In this document: one piece after another, positions 5,563 to 15,897 of the stretch | How the letters are laid out: each line of letters opens with the position of its first letter | Numbering within the stretch: position 1 is the stretch's first letter | Source of the DNA: Candidatus Falkowbacteria bacterium | GTDB lineage: Bacteria; Patescibacteriota; Patescibacteriia; Patescibacteriales; UBA12465 | Length of the DNA stretch: 64,000 nt | Assembly: GCA_016432645.1 (NCBI GenBank) | Contig: CP066698.1 | Coordinates: 133,062 to 197,061 of the forward strand | Direction: 5' to 3' | The notes under the pieces: model-generated | Database searches by the model: none | What the model was told of the DNA's origin: nothing | The model's input: only the letters and a program-made list of their open reading frames with translations | Program-made: the position numbers and the translations under genes

Positions 5563-5973
5563 ATGGAAAAGTATCGTCCCTTAACTTTACTGGCAGCCAT
5601 TTTGGTTGTCCTGTTGTTTACTGCTTTAATTATCTTTGGCGGGAAAGGTAAGAATGCTGTCGTTAAAGCCGATAAAGAACTCGGCTATACTATTGATAGT
5701 TTAAAAGCTGAAGGCGTCTTGACGCTTACTAACATTACGCATTTGTATCTGTTTGATCGCCTGCAAGATCAAACGGCTGATGGGAAAAAGGGATTTGTCA
5801 TTCTTGGTAATCGTCTCTATCAGGTTAACAACCTTGCTCAGGGATGCACACTGACGCCCGATGATGGCAATTTAGATTATCATTTAGAAGTCGTGCATAC
5901 CTCAGCCCCTGTCTATCAGCCAGGAGATTTTCTGGATACCTATGTAATCAGAAAATGCGCTGGGCGATATTAG
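5563..5973 (+). CDS. hypothetical N-terminally membrane-anchored or secreted protein (136 aa)
   Basis: N-terminal hydrophobic helix LTLLAAILVVLLFTALIIF. Has its own promoter (5481-5509) and the bidirectional terminator 5989-6028. Confidence 0.55.
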   Translation: MEKYRPLTLLAAILVVLLFTALIIFGGKGKNAVVKADKELGYTIDSLKAEGVLTLTNITHLYLFDRLQDQTADGKKGFVILGNRLYQVNNLAQGCTLTPDDGNLDYHLEVVHTSAPVYQPGDFLDTYVIRKCAGRY

Positions 5974-5988
5974 CCTTGAATTTTATTT

Positions 5989-6028
5989 AAAAAAAAGAAC
6001 CCCGAAACTTTTCAGCTTCGGGGTTTTT
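5989..6028. terminator. bidirectional intrinsic terminator between convergent genes
   Basis: A-run, CCCCGAA/TTCGGGG stem, T-run. Confidence 0.7.
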
Positions 6029-6045
6029 ACTAATTCATTTTAAAA

Positions 6046-7065
6046 TTATCTTAAGTACTTTTTAGCAACTTCCAAAGCATTGCCGCCGTAGAAGTTTTTT
6101 TCTAAGAGATTCCAAAAACCAATTACCGCTGCCCCTAAATTATTTTTTGAATTATCCAAATAAACTTGAGAAAAGCCTTTGCCTTTGAAATTATAGGCTT
6201 GGCTATGTTTGGAGATTGGTTGGTAGTAGAATTCAGCGCCGGGCATTATGAATAGGCTGAGTTGTGGGCTGGGCAAAATTTTTATATTATTTTCAAAATT
6301 TTTTGCCGCTTGTCCGGAATTAAATAATCCTTCCGAACTTTCAACTTTTTCTTGCCAATCAGCATCATTAATCCAAGAGAATACCCGTTGGCGGTATTCC
6401 GGCAGACGTCCGCTTTCAGCATGAACTTTTAATTTTCCTCCTCGAAAACCCTTTTCTTCTTTGGATAAAATATCCATCGCTTTCAGAAAGTTTTTTGCTT
6501 GCGTTTCCACTAGCGCAAAACCTTGATAGTTTTCTTCTCGGATTTTTTCCAAGGAAGTCGGCCGCTTTTTAATGCCGTTGTCATACCGGAAAAGAGATCC
6601 GGCATGATTCTCATCGGCTGATAAGTGGATGCTGATTTGCGGTTTGATAACGCCTATTTTTTTAAGATTTAAAATAGTGTTTTCCACGCCGCTAGCATTG
6701 GGATTGAGAGAGACAAAGCCTAAGCCGGCAGTTAGAATTGTTATTTTTGTCTTGCCTCCAGAAGAGTAATTGATTAAATCAATCAAATTACCCAATTCTT
6801 TATAAAGGAAAGGGTCGCCGCCGCTCAGTCTGATTTCTCTAATTTTGGAAAAATTGATTTTGCTAAAGAAATTAAGATACCAATCAAAGCCGACTGTCCG
6901 TCCAAAATATGTTTCTGAGGACCAACAGTGGGCGCAGGTTCCTTCGCAAACCGGAAAAACAAAGATGACAATTTCCCAACCATCGGGATGCAAAACAGCT
7001 TGTTCCAGCACGGGCACATAGCCTTTTACTGGTTTAAATTCTGGTATTTTTTCCATATCATCCAA
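6046..7065 (-). CDS. radical SAM enzyme (339 aa, no SPASM motif seen)
   Basis: CxxxCxxC cluster CEGTCAHC near the N-terminus and an LSGGDPF glycine-rich SAM motif. Overlaps the upstream SPASM gene by about 30-40 nt, suggesting translational coupling. Confidence 0.75.
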   Translation of the reverse strand: MDDMEKIPEFKPVKGYVPVLEQAVLHPDGWEIVIFVFPVCEGTCAHCWSSETYFGRTVGFDWYLNFFSKINFSKIREIRLSGGDPFLYKELGNLIDLINYSSGGKTKITILTAGLGFVSLNPNASGVENTILNLKKIGVIKPQISIHLSADENHAGSLFRYDNGIKKRPTSLEKIREENYQGFALVETQAKNFLKAMDILSKEEKGFRGGKLKVHAESGRLPEYRQRVFSWINDADWQEKVESSEGLFNSGQAAKNFENNIKILPSPQLSLFIMPGAEFYYQPISKHSQAYNFKGKGFSQVYLDNSKNNLGAAVIGFWNLLEKNFYGGNALEVAKKYLR

Positions 7066-8501: not shown

Positions 8502-8529
8502 ATATTAAACCTTTTGCCAGATTTGTCAA
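8502..8529 (-). promoter_or_regulatory. sigma70-like promoter TTGACA-16-TAATAT for the radical-SAM pair
   Basis: Reverse complement of 8502-8529. The leader carries TTGTCCTTTAAAAAATC and a GAAAGGA RBS. Confidence 0.5.
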
Positions 8530-8536
8530 ATCATAA

Positions 8537-8567
8537 TAAAAAAGAGCCTGCGGGCGCGGCTCTCTTT
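8537..8567 (-). terminator. intrinsic terminator after the HExxH gene
   Basis: AGAGCC..GGCTCT stem with a GC-rich loop and a T-run on the minus strand. Separates the HExxH gene from the radical-SAM promoter. Confidence 0.6.
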
Positions 8568-9296
8568 TTATAAGGTTTTGGGGGAATATTTAGGATTTAA
8601 ATCTTCCGCACCAATTTTTAGGTTTAAAAGTTCTGGCCAAAATAAATCAGCATTTTTTTCTTGTTGCCAAAAATGATCATAAATCTGAGCGCTAGATTTA
8701 ATTAAAGCGTCATTTGTTGCATAACATGAGAAGGGTATGCCGTCGGTTAAACTTTTTAGTTCTCGGCTGTTGATTAAAGAGGGAACGAGGATTTCACTGA
8801 TAATCCATAAATCATGGGTACTAGGCAAATTAATTTTTTCCGCCAATTCTTTCATCTTACGATAAAAATAGAAGTGGCTGATTTCATGGATGCTGATTTT
8901 TGCAAAATCAATTTTAGTAGCAAAATAAGGCAGTAGAAAACTTTCTTTTACTAAATCACGCGGGTAGATTGGTCCGATGCCAATAGCGGCGGAAAAAGTT
9001 TTAGGTTCGGTATTTTGCAGACAGAAAAATTTTTCAAAGAATCCGGTAACCTGAGGACTAATTTCCGGCCACCAAAGCGCAAATTGCTTGGCGGCTAAAT
9101 CAAATTCAGGGCGCAGGCGCTTTCTGATTTTTGTCAGAGCTTTTGATAATTGACGTCTGTCAGGAGAGTGGAGTTCTGCGAGTTCGGGATAATCTTGAAT
9201 AATTTTATGCCATAGCTCGCTGTCGTTATCCTTTACAATTTCTAGAGCAATTGCTCCTAAAAAATTACTATGCTTTAAAATTATTAAATTTATCAT
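8568..9296 (-). CDS. hypothetical protein with an HExxH motif (putative zinc metallopeptidase-like, 242 aa)
   Basis: HEISH within KISIHEISHFYFY. Co-oriented between the micro-ORF and the radical-SAM genes. Confidence 0.5.
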   Translation of the reverse strand: MINLIILKHSNFLGAIALEIVKDNDSELWHKIIQDYPELAELHSPDRRQLSKALTKIRKRLRPEFDLAAKQFALWWPEISPQVTGFFEKFFCLQNTEPKTFSAAIGIGPIYPRDLVKESFLLPYFATKIDFAKISIHEISHFYFYRKMKELAEKINLPSTHDLWIISEILVPSLINSRELKSLTDGIPFSCYATNDALIKSSAQIYDHFWQQEKNADLFWPELLNLKIGAEDLNPKYSPKTL

Positions 9297-9330
9297 GGCT
9301 GGCAGATTTTTGTTATACCAAAATAAGATT

Positions 9331-9362
9331 TAAAAATAGGGAACGATATGTTATCGTCCCCC
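9331..9362 (-). terminator. hairpin plus T-run after the micro-ORF (terminator or attenuator)
   Basis: Minus strand reads GGGGGACGATAACATATCGTTCCC then TATTTTTA. Lies 25 nt after the micro-ORF stop and 35 nt before the HExxH ATG. Confidence 0.5.
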
Positions 9363-9386
9363 AGGAAGAGAGCGGCGCTTAGGCGC

Positions 9387-9479
9387 TTAGCAGGTCTTTT
9401 CTTTTGGCAACTTAGTTGCCGAAGCGGTTGCGGCAGCTTCACAACAGTAGGTTGCTGCCTTTTCTTTTCTTTTCTTCAT
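9387..9479 (-). CDS. unannotated 30-aa micro-ORF MKKRKEKAATYCCEAAATASATKLPKEKTC (candidate RiPP precursor)
   Basis: Translated by hand from the minus strand: ATG at 9479, TAA at 9389-9387. Has an upstream TTGATT-17-TAATTT promoter and a downstream hairpin plus T-run. Contains 3 Cys and is Ala/Thr-rich. No homology evidence. Confidence 0.35.
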   Translation of the reverse strand: MKKRKEKAATYCCEAAATASATKLPKEKTC

Positions 9480-9552
9480 TTTTCTTCTTTTTTAATTATT
9501 TACAATAAGGCCATTTTTTATGTTAATGTTCGAATTAAATTAACGTACTTCA

Positions 9553-9581
9553 AAATTACCACAAGTCCTTAAAATAATCAA
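9553..9581 (-). promoter_or_regulatory. candidate promoter TTGATT-17-TAATTT for the micro-ORF
   Basis: Reverse complement read directly. Followed by the leader motif TTCGAACATTAAC (9522-9534). Confidence 0.35.
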
Positions 9582-9593
9582 TAGGGATTGATA

Positions 9594-9622
9594 TTGACAA
9601 AATCATTCATAAAGTGTATAAA
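9594..9622 (+). promoter_or_regulatory. sigma70-like promoter TTGACA-17-TATAAA upstream of tyrS (a second candidate, TTGACG-17-TAATAT, is at 9691-9719)
   Basis: Read directly. Confidence 0.45.
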
Positions 9623-9769
9623 GAAGGATACTTTATTTTAAGTAAATAAAAGCTCCTTTACAATTAAATCTAAGCCTAAACACAGATTTATTGACGGTTT
9701 CAGGCCTTGATGGTAATATTTATCACAGAAATATTAGAAAAATTTTTAAAAACCAAAAAAATACTAAAG

Positions 9770-10960
9770 ATGAAAAACGAATTATTAAAAATTTTAGACC
9801 GAGGGATTGTTGTGCAAATCCTGCCCTCCAAAGACGAGTTTGTGGAAGCAATGTTGAGCCGAAAGATGCGCTTCTATATTGGCGCCGATCCAACCTCAAC
9901 CGCTCTCCATTTAAGCCACGCCAAGAACTATATGTTGTTGGAAGAGTTTCGTAAATTGGGACATGAAGTTATTGTCTTGATTGGTGATTTTACAGCCCGT
10001 ATTGGAGATCCTACCGAAAGAGCAACTACCAGAAAACAATTGACCAGAGAAGAAATTTTGGTCAACGTTACCAGCTGGGTAGAACAAATTAAGCCATTAA
10101 TGGATTTTAACGCCACAGTTAACCCGCCGAAAATCATGTTCAATCATGATTGGCTGTCCAAGTTAACCATGGAAGAAGTAGTCAAATTGGCTTCTAACGT
10201 GACTGTCCAACAAATGTTGGAACGCGACATGTTTGAAAAAAGGATGAACGAAAATCGTCCCATCTTCTTACATGAATTTTTATATCCTTTAATGCAAGGC
10301 TATGATAGCGTTGCTATGGATGTGGATGTTGAAATGTGTGGAACTGATCAGATTTTTAATGCGCTGATGGGTCGGACTTTACTCAAGAAATTGAGCAATA
10401 AAGACAAATTTGTCGTCGCCGTTAATCTGATGGAAAATCCTAAAACCAAGGAACTGATGTCTAAAAGTAGAGGAACTGGAATTTTTCTTAATTTCTCCGC
10501 CGAGGATATGTTTGCCGGTATTATGGCTCAGCCTGATGAAATGATTAAAGTTTTTTTGGTTAACAACACCAGAATCTCGCTCGCCGAAATTGACGAAATC
10601 CTGCAAGCCAAAAATCCGCGTGATGCTAAAATGAGAGCCGCCTTTGAGGTGACTAAAATTTTTCATGGGGAAGAAAAAGCAAAATTAGCCCAAGAAGTTT
10701 TTATTACTAAATTTCAGAAAAAGGAAGTTCCTGAAGATTTGGAAATTATTAAGTTCGGAGTTACCGGGATTTCTCTTTTTGACATCGTCAAAAAATCTCT
10801 GCCGGAGATGAGCAATAGTGAAATTAGGAGATTATTTGCTCAGGGTGGCATTAAAGTCAATTCTGAAACAAAAACAACACCTGAAGAAACTGCTTTTTTC
10901 CCCGAAGAAGGCTTAACTGTAAAAGTCGGAAAGAAGAAATGGTTTAAAGCAATGATTTAA
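9770..10960 (+). CDS. tyrS: tyrosyl-tRNA synthetase
   Basis: Class I signatures HLSH (HIGH-like) and LMSKS (KMSKS), plus a C-terminal S4-like RRLFAQGGIKVN. Start set at MKNELLKIL. Confidence 0.9.
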   Translation: MKNELLKILDRGIVVQILPSKDEFVEAMLSRKMRFYIGADPTSTALHLSHAKNYMLLEEFRKLGHEVIVLIGDFTARIGDPTERATTRKQLTREEILVNVTSWVEQIKPLMDFNATVNPPKIMFNHDWLSKLTMEEVVKLASNVTVQQMLERDMFEKRMNENRPIFLHEFLYPLMQGYDSVAMDVDVEMCGTDQIFNALMGRTLLKKLSNKDKFVVAVNLMENPKTKELMSKSRGTGIFLNFSAEDMFAGIMAQPDEMIKVFLVNNTRISLAEIDEILQAKNPRDAKMRAAFEVTKIFHGEEKAKLAQEVFITKFQKKEVPEDLEIIKFGVTGISLFDIVKKSLPEMSNSEIRRLFAQGGIKVNSETKTTPEETAFFPEEGLTVKVGKKKWFKAMI

Positions 10961-11636: not shown

Positions 11637-13292
11637 ATGAAAAACCAAAAACCTGTCAGTAATGATTTTTTAAGTGCCTGTTTGGCAAAAAATTATTCAA
11701 GCGCCGAAATTAAAGTAGCTTTTAAAAGCCTTGAAGCTCGGGATGATGAAAAGTTTCTTCGTTATTTTTTGGATTGTCAAAAATCTAAGAGCTCTAAAGT
11801 GCGCGAATTAGCTTGGGAGCTGGCGATTGATGAAATCAAAAAAGATGTGCTCTGGCAAAATTTTGCTTTTCTGATTGAATGTGAGCATTCGGAAAATGTT
11901 CGCATTGCGAAGTTGGCCGACACTCTTCTTTATCAAGCGATGCAGCATAAGGATCGCAAATATCGTCTGGATAAAATTGATTATTTAATCGCTTGCTATC
12001 GGTCGTCAGATGAGCAAAAACGAGAGCGAGTTGATTATTTGGTTAATGATATCGATTATGCCTTGTATTATCCTCATCTCGATTCTTTAGTAGCTTGGTC
12101 TAATGACGAAAATGTTAACGTCCGTGCCTTCGCTCGTGAAAAAGCTATCGGAGCCTTGGGACAACATTTTGTAAAAAATGAAGAATTGGGATTGCGCTTT
12201 GAGTTCATTATGAGCTGTGCTCTTTCAGACGACGATAAATTTGGCCGCGCCAAAGAGCTAAGCTTTAGCGCCATGTATTTTTGGCCGGTGGAAAAAGTTA
12301 AGCCTCATTTTGCTTATTTGTTGGCTTGCCGAGATCGTATTCATGGTTGGCCTATGGCTGACTCGATGAGACCGGCGATGCGTGTCATCGCCATTTTATC
12401 TGCCGATGAACAAAAAGCTTATTTGCCCTATTTGTTAGAGTGTTGGCATTTTAATAGCGATGTGGAGATGACTCTGAAACTTATCATTAAGATTATTGCT
12501 CCTTTGCCAACCGCCCAATTAGCGGAATACATTGACGTGCTGATTGCTTGCCAAAATTTTTCCAAATTACAGTCGCAGGCCAAACGCTTAGCTTTGTCTA
12601 TTAAAGTTGAAGAATTAGCAGTTTGGGAGCAGAAACTGGATGCAATTATTGAAGAACTTTCCAATTTATCCGGCTACCATTTTTCTTTTTTGACCCTGCA
12701 GTTAAAAATGAAATTACTGGCCTCGCTGAACTCTAAGGATTTATCAAATCAAATCCGCTACATTTTTGCTTGCCATAACCATGCAGATTCGTACATTCAA
12801 GCGCAAGCTAAAAAGTTGGCTCGTTCCATTAAAGCACGAGATTTAAAGGGGCAGGCAGCAAAAATAGCCCAGAGAGCTTTTTCTTCTCAAGTTAATGAAT
12901 TTAATCTGCGGCATATGAGCCTAGCTCTATGCTTCAAAATTAAGACCGATGAATTGTTGCTTGATTTGCGAAAGCTGGTTGATGATCATTGCGATCCGGA
13001 TAAATACAATTTCTTGAAAGAGCTGGCTTTCCGCATTAAGCCGAATAAATTTAATCCGGGAAAAATGTTTGAACTTAACGGTTATTTCGGACTCAATTAT
13101 TTGCTGGCTTTAAGAGCAATTATGTATTGGGATGCCAAAAAGTTGAAACGTTACTCAGACAAGATTTTTACTTGTCGTTTTAACAACAATCCTGACATCA
13201 AGGTTTTGGCCAATCGCTTGTACGACCGAATTCAAAGAGCTAAATTTAACCCTGAGCGGATAGCAGCTGTCAAAAATTTGGCGGTTGCCTAA
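11637..13292 (+). CDS. HEAT/PBS-lyase-like repeat protein with a conserved Cys in each repeat (551 aa)
   Basis: At least 10 degenerate repeats with about 35-45 aa period, e.g. YFLDCQKSKSSKVRELAWELA, FLIECEHSENVRIAKLA, YLIACYRSSDEQ, YLLACRDR, YLLECWHFNS, VLIACQNFSKLQSQAKRLA and YIFACHNHADSYIQAQAKKLA. Confidence 0.6.
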   Translation: MKNQKPVSNDFLSACLAKNYSSAEIKVAFKSLEARDDEKFLRYFLDCQKSKSSKVRELAWELAIDEIKKDVLWQNFAFLIECEHSENVRIAKLADTLLYQAMQHKDRKYRLDKIDYLIACYRSSDEQKRERVDYLVNDIDYALYYPHLDSLVAWSNDENVNVRAFAREKAIGALGQHFVKNEELGLRFEFIMSCALSDDDKFGRAKELSFSAMYFWPVEKVKPHFAYLLACRDRIHGWPMADSMRPAMRVIAILSADEQKAYLPYLLECWHFNSDVEMTLKLIIKIIAPLPTAQLAEYIDVLIACQNFSKLQSQAKRLALSIKVEELAVWEQKLDAIIEELSNLSGYHFSFLTLQLKMKLLASLNSKDLSNQIRYIFACHNHADSYIQAQAKKLARSIKARDLKGQAAKIAQRAFSSQVNEFNLRHMSLALCFKIKTDELLLDLRKLVDDHCDPDKYNFLKELAFRIKPNKFNPGKMFELNGYFGLNYLLALRAIMYWDAKKLKRYSDKIFTCRFNNNPDIKVLANRLYDRIQRAKFNPERIAAVKNLAVA

Positions 13293-13404: not shown

Positions 13405-15897
13405 ATGAGCATTGAAAAACACAATTTTGTTAACCAAGAGTCCATTAAGACTAAAGACCGGGAAAATCCCTCTGAGAAGTCTTTGGAGTTTAAGGCCCCT
13501 GAAACGGAGCAAATAAGTCCTGAGCAAGTGAAACAGATTAAACTGGAAGAGGCGTCTCAAATTGCTAAAATACAGGATGAAATTTCCAGTTTTAATAAGG
13601 TTCCGGAAACTCCTCGGTCAGCTATTATGCCAAGAAGACCTCAGGGTCTTTTAAATAGCTTGGCAAAGAATAAATTCATGAGCAAAGTCATGCTAGGTCT
13701 TGGTTTTGCGTCCACGATGGGGCAGAAACTTGAAGCTAGCGAACCTAAAATTGACGATAAACAAAAAATAACGGCCGATGCTGTTCAACAGCCAGGCGAA
13801 CGCATCCCTACTATGGGGGAGATAGATAGGGATAAATATTATAATTGGCAATGGAAAGTGGAGAATAACGAGCCGGTCAGTCCTGAAGATATGCCTGATT
13901 TTGAGCCTGGTTATGAAATACCAATGAGAGATTTTTCCGGGTATGGCTATACTCATAAAGATTTAATGTGGAATAAGTTGCCGACACTTGATTTTTCTGA
14001 GAGAGGCTTTGAAAATATGAGTGCCCGAGAAAAAGCGGCCTTGTTTGTCGAAAGCTACTTACCTTATAAACAGGGAAGAATACCAGAGATAAATCCCGAG
14101 TTGTTAAATTTAGACAAAAAATCAGCAACAGAAGTTGCTAAAGAAAGTTTAGCTAAAGGTATTTTGACTTCTCAAGAAGGCTTCATGCCGAAAGTCAAAG
14201 GACATGAAGTGTTATATGATGCCGCTGGGAAAGTTTTGCGCAAATATGCTAAAAATGATGAGAAGGTAATAAACGGCGAACTGCCGCATCAAGAAAGTAT
14301 TGACGCTAAAGCCTATAAGAATACTTTATATGATTTGAATTTATTGGATAAGCGAACGGAATTAGTGATTGATCCTAAAATTGCTATCCATTGGAAAACA
14401 TTTGGCCGCTTGCCTAAATATGCCGATATGAATAACTTGGGCGTTTTAAAGAATCAGGCCATTAACGGGCGAGAAGCAAAACAAGGTTTGAGTCTAGATG
14501 AAATAAGATGTTTGCCGCAATGGCTAAAGGATAAGGCGGGAATCACTGGGGAGCTTAAACAGGATATTCCATTGATGTGGGACGGCATGCCATTAGATCA
14601 ACGCACTGGTTCCGGTACCGGTCTTTTTAGTTCGGTGTGTGCCGGGCTTGGTCTTGATTACGAACATAGTTCTCGAGAAGAAATAGATAAAAAAGAGGCG
14701 GAAGTTATAAAGTTTATACAAGATGAAATAGCCAAAGGCGCTAAGTATATTACCTGCACTTATCCGATTAACCAACGCGGGGGCTATAACCAAAATAAAG
14801 ATTTAGATTTGGAATATAAAAAGTATCCAGAAAATCCCGATTATCGTCCGCAAATTAAGTCTCTGGTTGAGAAAATAAAATCGGGAAAATATCCGACTAT
14901 TTTTAAACTCGACGAAACGCCGCTAGAAAAAATGATGGACAGAGTTCCTTCGCTTTTTAGCGGTTTATATGAAGGCTCGGAAGTTATTCCTTTCAGCGAA
15001 AAGGGGAAAACCTTACAAGACTTCGCCAGTAAAGATAAATTGACAGCGGAAGATATGAAATTTATTAATACTGAAATGTTAAAAGCGGACGTTTTGGAAA
15101 GCGATTATAAAGTTAGAGACGAGCTCGTCGCTTATATGAAGGATCCGCGTTTTGTTACCAAGTTAATTGCCCGTCATCAAGGAGAGGAATATTTAGATTC
15201 CATTACTCCAAAATTTGGCAATGACCCGAAATGGGATGAATATAAAAAAGTCCTAGAAAATTATGCTTTCTTGCGTGATAGGCAAATTGAGCAATTATCG
15301 CGTAGCCCTATCGGCAAGGTAGTCGGTAATTATAGATTGGGAGTTCCTTTGGATGCGGCGATGTCTATTCCGATTGAGCCTTTGCATTTCGTTACGGATG
15401 TCGGTCGTTTGACCGAAACCAATTTGGCTAATTTGTCAGCCAGAACTTCCGGTTTGGTGCCGGAAGTGGCCGCTGGGCATGAAATGCAACATGTACTGCA
15501 ACACGCTTACCCCACTGACAACGCGCTCGGGGCTAACATGGAAGCCTATGAAAATACTTTAACCAAATTTTTAGAGGGGTATAAAAAGGAAGATTTCAAT
15601 GCCTATTATTCCAGCGAGGGCGGCGGCTCGGTCAAAGAATTCGACGCCGATTTGATACAGTTCAAATATAATTTAGCTAACGATTTAACAAGCGTAAAAA
15701 ATAGAGAATTTGTCAAAGCAATGATTGCGACGCCGACTCCCGCTGAGATTGATACTTATTTAAAGAAAGTCAGTACGGAGTGGCAGGAAAAAAGAGTGGC
15801 TATGGATCCGGCGGTGGAGCGGATTATGCAAATTTGGGAAAACTCTACTCCGGCGCAAAAGAAGCAATTACTAAAAATCATGGACGTTTATGTTTAA
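13405..15897 (+). CDS. large membrane-anchored hypothetical protein with a C-terminal HExxH motif (830 aa)
   Basis: Single hydrophobic segment VMLGLGFASTMG around residue 95. HEMQH occurs in VAAGHEMQHVLQH around residue 690. Confidence 0.6.
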   Translation: MSIEKHNFVNQESIKTKDRENPSEKSLEFKAPETEQISPEQVKQIKLEEASQIAKIQDEISSFNKVPETPRSAIMPRRPQGLLNSLAKNKFMSKVMLGLGFASTMGQKLEASEPKIDDKQKITADAVQQPGERIPTMGEIDRDKYYNWQWKVENNEPVSPEDMPDFEPGYEIPMRDFSGYGYTHKDLMWNKLPTLDFSERGFENMSAREKAALFVESYLPYKQGRIPEINPELLNLDKKSATEVAKESLAKGILTSQEGFMPKVKGHEVLYDAAGKVLRKYAKNDEKVINGELPHQESIDAKAYKNTLYDLNLLDKRTELVIDPKIAIHWKTFGRLPKYADMNNLGVLKNQAINGREAKQGLSLDEIRCLPQWLKDKAGITGELKQDIPLMWDGMPLDQRTGSGTGLFSSVCAGLGLDYEHSSREEIDKKEAEVIKFIQDEIAKGAKYITCTYPINQRGGYNQNKDLDLEYKKYPENPDYRPQIKSLVEKIKSGKYPTIFKLDETPLEKMMDRVPSLFSGLYEGSEVIPFSEKGKTLQDFASKDKLTAEDMKFINTEMLKADVLESDYKVRDELVAYMKDPRFVTKLIARHQGEEYLDSITPKFGNDPKWDEYKKVLENYAFLRDRQIEQLSRSPIGKVVGNYRLGVPLDAAMSIPIEPLHFVTDVGRLTETNLANLSARTSGLVPEVAAGHEMQHVLQHAYPTDNALGANMEAYENTLTKFLEGYKKEDFNAYYSSEGGGSVKEFDADLIQFKYNLANDLTSVKNREFVKAMIATPTPAEIDTYLKKVSTEWQEKRVAMDPAVERIMQIWENSTPAQKKQLLKIMDVYV

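Follow-up and report, generated by a model that had tools for sequence, protein, structure and literature searches.

A 30-codon gene of a Candidatus Falkowbacteria genome belongs to an uncurated family of predicted radical SAM peptide substrates linked to tyrosyl- and tryptophanyl-tRNA synthetase genes

We analyzed a 64,000-nucleotide stretch (the window) of a Candidatus Falkowbacteria metagenome-assembled genome, in which a minus-strand open reading frame (ORF) of 30 codons, with the translation MKKRKEKAATYCCEAAATASATKLPKEKTC, lies between a divergently oriented tyrosyl-tRNA synthetase gene (tyrS) and genes for a protein with an HExxH motif and two radical S-adenosylmethionine (radical SAM) enzymes. 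By the pattern of its sequence conservation, the ORF is a genuine gene under purifying selection, and sequence comparison places its product in an uncurated family that is new within the radical SAM-modified ribosomal peptides. We put at roughly 85% the probability that the ORF is translated and encodes the substrate of a four-gene system made up of this precursor, the HExxH protein, a radical SAM/SPASM maturase, and a second radical SAM enzyme. Across the loci compared, the aromatic residue of the peptide core matches the neighboring gene for one of the two class Ic aminoacyl-tRNA synthetases (aaRSs), TyrRS and TrpRS, such that cores with Tyr go with tyrS and cores with Trp go with trpS. This genomic linkage suggests that the cognate synthetase is either what the product acts on or what counters it, and the covariation is undescribed as far as our literature search reached.

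Taken by itself, an ORF of 30 codons is unremarkable in this AT-rich DNA because 10 kb contains 92 ORFs of at least 25 amino acids (aa), and its significance comes from conservation. An equivalent small ORF and the same gene order are present in all of the compared contigs that encode the nearest relatives of the cluster enzymes, three of which (L001, L003, and L004) make up our ortholog set together with the window. The ortholog products are MKKKKEKAATYCCEAAATVGATKLPKEKTC (L001), MKKSKVVKRPAATYCCEAAATLQVKKLPKEKC (L003), and (GTG)KKKKSKGATYCCEAAATIKAIKLPPEKTC (L004, with a GTG start codon), and two of the ortholog ORFs had already been predicted independently by gene finders. The length differences among the orthologs keep the frame (a three-codon insertion and a one-codon deletion), and their Cys codons show synonymous TGT/TGC changes. 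Among the four genes, 8, 9, and 21 of 29 columns are variable at codon positions 1, 2, and 3, respectively, and the pairwise ratios of nonsynonymous to synonymous substitution rates (dN/dS) range from 0.07 to 0.12. A preliminary description of this DNA had proposed an unannotated precursor gene of a peptide that is made on the ribosome and modified after translation (RiPP), which would have a promoter of its own and would be followed by a terminator before the enzyme genes, and had named the loss of the reading frame or of the Cys codons in relatives as the outcome that would speak against it. The comparison gave the reverse result, with both kept at a dN/dS of about 0.1, and the proposal is further borne out by the adjacency of the peptide gene to the same enzyme genes in 26 distinct loci. 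The precursor gene has no Shine-Dalgarno site, which is normal here because the genome hardly uses such sites: the element (GGAG/GAGG/AGGA) is missing upstream of 52 of the 55 window ORFs of at least 150 aa.

Beyond the orthologs, a search with a precursor profile yielded 66 called peptides, and an exhaustive hidden Markov model search of 1.84 billion representatives yielded about 54 clusters at 50% identity. The window peptide is not among the 66, while its orthologs P0156 and P0166 are. The members share the signature [S/A]-A-[S/T]-[Y/W]-C-C-E-A-A-x-T-(V/L/I)-x-A-x-x-L-P-x-E-x-A-(F/Y), which we quantified in a logo of 116 distinct cores with the aromatic residue set as position 0 and with the Cys residues at +1 and +2 demanded by the extraction pattern. 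The residues before the pair are S (66%) or A (29%) at -3, A (97%) at -2, S (92%) or T (5%) at -1, and Y (97%) or W (3%) at 0; those after it are E (98%) at +3, A (80%) or S (18%) at +4, A (72%) or S (28%) at +5, T (64%) at +7, V/L/I (97%) at +8, A/V/I (92%) at +10, L (84%) at +13, P (66%) at +14, E (68%) at +16, A (63%) at +18, and F (54%) or Y (15%) at +19. Y/W-C-C-E and its flanking positions are 84 to 100% conserved, bearing in mind that C-C was a requirement of the extraction, and neither the logo nor the exhaustive search has any residue other than Y or W at the aromatic position.

The window peptide consists of a 10-aa K-rich leader (MKKRKEKAAT) followed by a single 20-aa core unit, YCCEAAATASATKLPKEKTC. 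Single-core members typically stop at +19, and because the window peptide stops at exactly this position, it is a minimal family member of one leader and one unit; in some other precursors, the unit occurs twice in tandem. The very basic N terminus, which the preliminary description took to be atypical of a leader, is instead the norm in the family, where positions -8 to -4 are rich in K. That description had also drawn attention to the CC pair and the C-terminal Cys. Two of the three Cys residues, namely, the pair in its invariant Y/W-C-C-E context, are indeed conserved family-wide, but the terminal one is restricted to a clade: the last residues of P0161 are ...KTR, and ...AF or ...AY is the usual ending in the family. 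Separately, a subgroup with SAGYCCKTA (P0200, P0203, and P0212) has Lys in place of the otherwise invariant Glu, and the first of the two units is degenerate in some precursors (SASYYCEAT, SISYYCEAT, and LQVICESAG in P0137, P0141, and P0144).

The precursor gene is directly upstream of the genes for the HExxH protein and the first and second radical SAM enzymes in 26 distinct loci, with the maturase accompanying the precursor without exception and both the HExxH protein and the second radical SAM enzyme present in nearly all loci. Even distant maturase homologs (45 to 58% identity) are encoded with the same gene set and a small ORF carrying the same core. The system occurs in Kerfeldbacteria, Saccharimonadales, and other lineages of the candidate phyla radiation (CPR), in the gammaproteobacterium Agarivorans, and in low-GC lineages. 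Neither Pfam nor NCBIfam has a family for the precursor, and we found no description of it in curated models or in the literature searched (by motif strings, FibroRumin, radical SAM with aaRS self-resistance, and ranthipeptide with CPR).

The second finding concerns the neighboring synthetase. A tyrS equivalog directly adjoins the cluster in every CPR locus (TIGR00234, 262 to 396 bits against a cutoff of 113.8), and Y-type cores stand beside tyrS in 18 distinct loci. Its orientation is divergent in the Falkowbacteria clade, co-directional and upstream in most other loci, and, at L024 and L028, tyrS is found downstream. Farther out, past tyrS on one flank and the second radical SAM gene on the other, the genes vary from locus to locus (among them GNAT, HIT, L28, DEAD helicase, UvrC, ROK, rubrerythrin, Wzy, and HU on one side; Amidohydro_2, GalT, HD_4, and transposase on the other), so that the outer flanks are unrelated. 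The W-only loci L040/41 and L042, with the core AASWCCEAS, carry trpS rather than tyrS directly after the second radical SAM gene (L040:7220-8236 and L042:7218-8219). The L018 precursor combines one SASYCCEAS and one SASWCCEAS unit, and directly upstream of it lie tyrS and trpS side by side (L018:2530-4977). Two predictions from this rule held for further members of the L018 clade: a precursor with two Y units (P0147, locus L070) is abutted by tyrS (L070:1155-2465) with no trpS, and a Y+W precursor on a short contig (P0155, L072) is abutted by trpS (L072:2-1030). When each distinct locus is counted once, 4 of 4 loci with a W core have trpS, versus 0 of about 21 Y-only loci; the corresponding naive Fisher P value, computed by hand, is about 8e-5 (about 1/12650) but ignores shared ancestry, so that the true significance is weaker. 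This count covers four of the W-containing loci, and six more W-type precursors (P0206, P0208, P0210, and P0213 to P0215) lie outside it. On the basis of these gene neighborhoods, the aromatic core residue matches the adjacent class Ic synthetase gene.

The linked synthetases and their surroundings have several further features. Among the loci examined, two tyrS copies occur at L024 only, as a tandem pair directly downstream of the cluster (L024:4319-5533 and 5736-6965) that is 59% identical and has both HIGH and KQSKS in each copy; it is possible that these are a housekeeping and specialized pair. The window TyrRS, which may in fact start about 20 codons downstream of position 9707, is nearer to Thermus thermophilus-type structures (1H3E and 6BQY) than to the Escherichia coli type. 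At approximately residues 70 to 75, it has HLSH, as does that of L004, versus the usual HIGH/HLGH, and the linked TyrRSs of L009 and L024 have HIGH. RelA/SpoT-type HD_4 (ppGpp metabolism) genes lie less than 5 kb from the cluster at five loci (L009:6093-6737, L015:3507-4946, L018:8383-8901, L042:9509-11323, and L043:6813-8261), and at L015 a RelA_SpoT/TGS gene occupies the usual place of tyrS. At L005 (7067-7387), Amidohydro_2 is followed by a Trp repressor family gene (PF01371) at a distance of about 1 kb downstream from the cluster, which may be coincidental.

These observations can be assembled into a scheme for the function of the system. A short transcript stopping at the terminator would yield the precursor in excess over the HExxH protein, whose gene would be reached by read-through. 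The SPASM maturase would then cross-link the adjacent Cys thiols to nearby carbons, for which PapB and QhpD, taken as analogs, point to the invariant Glu as the likeliest acceptor; if thioethers form, Glu is more likely to be used than the Ala or Thr residues favored in the preliminary description. The second radical SAM enzyme may add a further modification, and the HExxH...E protein may trim the peptide, possibly at the invariant A-S|Y junction, or present it to the maturase. After cross-linking and trimming, a Tyr or Trp warhead might fill the amino acid or adenylate pocket of TyrRS or TrpRS. The mature Tyr- or Trp-centered product would thus bind the cognate synthetase as an inhibitor or regulator, with the linked synthetase being a resistant copy or the target, a proposal that we advance tentatively and to which we give somewhat less than even odds. 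Such a product could be an antibiotic of episymbiotic CPR bacteria directed against hosts or competitors or an endogenous translation brake tied to the stringent response.

A number of points weigh against this scheme. The system is known from sequence only, and its modification chemistry is read from family similarity below the curated thresholds. The W-type evidence comes from few lineages, with L040 being related to L042 and L018 to L072, and both Agarivorans (L011) and L015 lack an adjoining aaRS gene. The linked tyrS is probably the sole copy in the approximately 1-Mb CPR genomes, so that a resistance copy is at most a possible role for it. The Falkowbacteria-type core itself deviates in having Ala in place of the usual V/L/I at +8 and in ending in ...KTC, not ...AF. 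No peptidase family matches the HExxH protein significantly, and its AlphaFold2 model, built from a three-sequence alignment, is too poor to use (predicted local distance difference test score of 57). Finally, we saw no exporter or dedicated immunity gene in the cluster, which fits poorly with a secreted antibiotic. Because of this lack of an exporter and the likely single-copy state of tyrS, readings in which the product is a cofactor or metabolite, or in which the linkage only reflects co-expression, have to be weighed alongside. Here, the peptide would be a genuine radical SAM substrate giving rise to an intracellular molecule in the manner of pyrroloquinoline quinone (PQQ) or mycofactocin, and the adjacency of tyrS or trpS would mean only co-expression or co-inheritance. 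The conserved core without a transporter or immunity gene, the retention of the system in streamlined CPR genomes, and the combination of two radical SAM enzymes with a small partner protein, as in cofactor pathways, all agree with it, as does the invariance of both Tyr and Glu, which are likewise invariant in PqqA. A Tyr-built cofactor, however, should not tolerate a Tyr-to-Trp swap, and still less would one expect trpS to replace tyrS in step with the swap; moreover, the mixed Y+W precursors of L018 and L072 would imply two products per pathway. We consider this alternative unlikely, though it deserves to be taken seriously.

The remaining alternatives deny that the peptide is a substrate at all. 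If it were a cis-acting leader peptide whose translation controls the downstream terminator, its sequence would matter only for the behavior of the ribosome. A hairpin and T-run do lie past the ORF (9363-9331), as they do in at least 10 loci, the stop codon is directly followed by a small hairpin, and the single Tyr codon beside tyrS could hint at sensing. Against this, the entire 20-aa unit is conserved as protein across phyla and is tandemly duplicated inside one ORF, neither a hairpin nor a gap separates the genes in many loci (intergenic regions of 0 to 20 nt), there is just one Tyr codon, and the ORF lies downstream of tyrS in the co-directional loci, making this alternative very improbable. 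A structured noncoding RNA (a small RNA, as entertained in the preliminary description, or a riboswitch leader) in which the ORF is fortuitous draws on the somewhat better folding of the 241-nt region than of its shuffles (z = -2.25) and on GGCAGC/GCUGCC and GGCAAC/GUUGCC stems within the coding sequence. However, Rfam 15 has no match in the whole window at the gathering threshold (including no tRNA or rRNA) and only chance-level matches in 9200-9750 at E <= 10. The coding segment reaches only z = -1.5 with 14 of 200 shuffles equally stable, the first coding-sequence stem is broken in L004 with the protein retained, and the substitutions are codon periodic with a dN/dS of about 0.1, so that this possibility is effectively refuted; with neither conservation nor significance (z = -1.5), we also discarded the stems inside the coding sequence as an RNA element. 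Hardest of all to credit is that the true gene is the plus-strand ORF of 74 aa (9348-9572), which is the longest over the interval. It exists, but the preliminary description already saw no promoter logic for it, and indeed no promoter is evident in our scan. In addition, it runs antisense through the conserved promoter, coding sequence, and terminator, and the open antisense stretch of 81 aa decays to 55, 48, and 31 aa in the orthologs.

Features of the precursor locus and its cluster in the window
Feature	Position	Strand	Details and basis
Radical SAM gene 2, 339 aa	6046..7065	-	CEGTCAHC at 40; overlaps maturase stop
Radical SAM/SPASM maturase gene, 470 aa	7026..8438	-	CNLNCRYC at 118; eight Cys after residue 330
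Radical SAM gene promoter	8502..8529	-	TTGACA-16/17-TAATAT, near consensus; scan, 10/12 matches
Second terminator-like hairpin and T-run, after HExxH stop	8538..8566	-	z = -4.6; position kept in ortholog alignment
HExxH protein gene, 242 aa	8568..9296	-	HEISH 137-141, E168
Intrinsic-terminator-like hairpin (12 bp, 3-nt loop) and T-run, between precursor and HExxH genes	9331..9363	-	Terminator scan, folding
Small hairpin GCGC-CUAA-GCGC, directly 3' of precursor stop	9375..9386	-	Folding, ortholog comparison
Precursor peptide gene, 30 aa	9387..9479	-	ATG 9479, TAA 9389-9387; direct reading, in-frame conservation, family membership
Signature codons A-A-T-Y-C-C-E (residues 8-14)	9438..9458	-	Tyr11 at 9449-9447; logo
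Precursor promoter	9553..9581	-	-35 TTGATT 9581-9576, 17-nt spacer, TAATTT 9558-9553; direct reading, orthologs
tyrS, tyrosine--tRNA ligase	9707..10960	+	Divergent from cluster; TIGR00234, 314 bits vs cutoff 113.8

Direct reading of the DNA agrees with the ORF boundaries, promoter, terminator hairpin, and spacing to the HExxH gene given in the preliminary description. The precursor promoter is under the 9-of-12 threshold of a simple promoter scan. The TG at 9561-9560 makes its -10 element an extended one (TGgTAATTT, 9561-9553), and alignment shows the -35 element and TGnTAnnnT to be kept in 4 of 4 orthologous loci. The same cannot be said of the supposedly shared leader motif upstream, TTCGAACATTAAC, which has 3 matches at up to 2 mismatches versus 3.0 expected by chance and is conserved in the closest ortholog only. 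One variant, TTCGAACATTAAA at 1396-1408 on the plus strand, differs by one mismatch and precedes the start codon of the ORF at 1420-2013 by 12 nt. The direct repeat AGCGCC-TA-AGCGCC noted after the stop codon is present in the sequence but is better read as the small hairpin, with a counterpart at L001 (GCGC-UUAA-GCGC), one with base changes at L004 (ACGC-CUAG-GCGU), and none at L003. The larger stem-loop (9363-9337, followed by TTTTTA) was called independently by a consensus scan and has a z score of -3.8, with 0 of 200 shuffles equally stable. At least 10 distinct loci have a hairpin and T-run at this position, with stems unrelated in sequence; in others, the precursor is tightly coupled to the next gene (intergenic regions of 0 to 20 nt, many with no hairpin). 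With its GC-rich stem, U-run, and conserved position, the element is a putative intrinsic terminator.

The HExxH gene begins 35 nt past the T-run, and a candidate promoter for it, TGgTATAAC (9320-9312), was rejected, being found in the window only and not kept in the orthologs. The TTGACA and TAATAT elements upstream of the maturase gene, on the other hand, are kept in all four orthologs. The resulting layout is promoter, precursor, terminator, HExxH gene, terminator, promoter, and the two radical SAM genes. Because the latter have their own promoter behind a second terminator, the cluster is not one simple operon, and from this arrangement of predicted signals, only the HExxH gene is clearly dependent on read-through. 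The idea of a leaky terminator that lets the precursor outnumber its enzymes therefore applies to the precursor and the HExxH gene but not to the radical SAM genes with their conserved TTGACA-17-TAATAT promoter. Beyond tyrS, two adjacent plus-strand ORFs of 551 and 830 aa (11637-13292 and 13405-15897) have no Pfam domain at E <= 0.01.

Comparison of 19 diverse sequences of the HExxH protein revealed invariant W76, R113, H137, E138, H141, F142, W164, E168, and Y192. Its similarity to zincins (SprT-like, M35, DUF3267, DUF5700, and M78) is sub-threshold throughout. The window protein has no Pfam family and no NCBIfam match at E <= 0.1, its homologs at L011 and L007 have no NCBIfam match at E <= 1, including to mod_HExxH (TIGR04267), and profile searches of the PDB with the family found no match; a contig scan with the HExxH alignment, using a narrow back-translated pattern, recovered 3 loci only. 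Gluzincin-type metallopeptidases pair HExxH with a Glu ligand farther downstream, for which the invariant E168 is a candidate. The protein is probably a divergent zincin-like peptidase or a substrate-handling partner. At L015 (5120-7159; also L016, L017; P0042), a 679-aa protein has an HExxH domain (HELIH at 131) fused to a radical SAM/SPASM maturase (CxxxCxxC at 322), and by the Rosetta stone principle this fusion argues for a functional tie between both proteins.

The maturase is under every curated cutoff. Its best NCBIfam match is FibroRumin (TIGR04136) with 231 bits versus a cutoff of 400, followed by PapB (146, cutoff 340), CefB (140), QhpD (130, cutoff 453), and SCIFF (TIGR03974; 129, cutoff 425), with DynA also among the best curated matches. 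When applied to ten other maturases of the family, TIGR04136 gives 203 to 255 bits, all below 400. The closest solved structure is CteB (5WGG). By these profile comparisons, the maturase stands as a sister to the SPASM enzymes that form thioethers (the FibroRumin, PapB, CefB, QhpD, and SCIFF/CteB types) and is a member of none of them. The second radical SAM enzyme has no close relative among curated families or solved structures. Its gene is followed by a third radical SAM gene in Agarivorans (L011:6448-7338; 296 aa, with SPASM) and in the L069-L071 lineage (L069:5372-6250; 292 aa).

A 30-codon gene missed by annotation thus proves to be real and anchors an uncurated RiPP-like family that spans CPR, gammaproteobacterial, and low-GC lineages. 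That a core residue predicts the neighboring synthetase is a sharp genomic rule, testable at low cost, that hints at a molecular target, which orphan RiPP families rarely offer. If TyrRS or TrpRS is indeed the target, no earlier radical SAM RiPP class would have been aimed at class Ic aaRSs as the Y/W-C-C-E peptides are; they would add a chemotype, antibiotic or regulatory, against drug targets that are already validated, and a function would be assigned to one of the few biosynthetic clusters retained in ultra-small CPR genomes. In that case, the 30-aa gene of the window would be the minimal natural version of a synthetase-directed precursor. Its short 10-aa leader and 20-aa core make it attractive for reconstitution.

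Comparison with known systems places the family among, yet apart from, several radical SAM pathways. The maturase aligns with the FibroRumin model over its full length (residues 14 to 463 against model positions 2 to 452), including the N-terminal extension ahead of CxxxCxxC, and this is true of all branches of the family. At 200 to 255 bits against the cutoff of 400, the family maturases are nevertheless a sister group, a comparison that concerns the maturases, and the literature searched has no mention of the FibroRumin system. The ranthipeptide/SCIFF systems (PapA/PapB of freyrasin; CteB) resemble ours in having a SPASM radical SAM enzyme beside a small Cys-containing precursor with a Cys donor near an acidic residue, and CteB and PapB provide the closest structure and the second-best family, respectively. 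PapB joins Cys to the side-chain carbons of Asp or Glu. Unlike its substrate, with repeated CX3D/E motifs, the peptides described here have C-C-E once per unit (146 bits versus 340 for the maturase), and unlike the SCIFF peptides, with six Cys residues in about 45 residues, they have two invariant Cys residues per unit (129 bits versus 425). The second radical SAM enzyme, the HExxH partner, and the aaRS linkage are also extra relative to both.

QhpC/QhpD, in the maturation of the gamma subunit of quinohemoprotein amine dehydrogenase, offers another parallel through the 130-bit match of the maturase to QhpD. Since QhpD makes Cys-to-Asp/Glu thioethers, the invariant Glu is a plausible acceptor. 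The score is, however, far from the cutoff of 453, no dehydrogenase subunits are encoded nearby, and the substrate here is a free-standing peptide of 30 to 80 aa, often with two repeats. The His-Xaa-Ser system (HxsA, HxsB/HxsC) likewise has a SPASM radical SAM enzyme followed by a smaller one beside a short repeat-containing peptide, with weak matches of the first enzyme to HxsB (93 bits) and of the second to HxsC (22 bits). All of these scores are far under the cutoffs, the peptide motif is another, and an HExxH protein stands in place of an HxsD equivalent.

With respect to the synthetase, the closest precedents are biosynthetic clusters for aaRS inhibitors with a linked self-resistance synthetase, such as mupirocin/IleRS, indolmycin/TrpRS, borrelidin/ThrRS, and albomycin/SerRS. 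Microcin C is a RiPP-like Trojan horse against AspRS, but the conserved core here has no adenylating enzyme of the MccB/ThiF type. In the literature searched, no radical SAM RiPP is known to target TyrRS or TrpRS. Unlike the established inhibitor clusters, the present system comes to us as genes alone, and the tyrS of the CPR genomes may be a sole copy. What the two share is that the linked synthetase matches the amino acid-like moiety of the product, which in this family takes the form of Tyr with tyrS and Trp with trpS.

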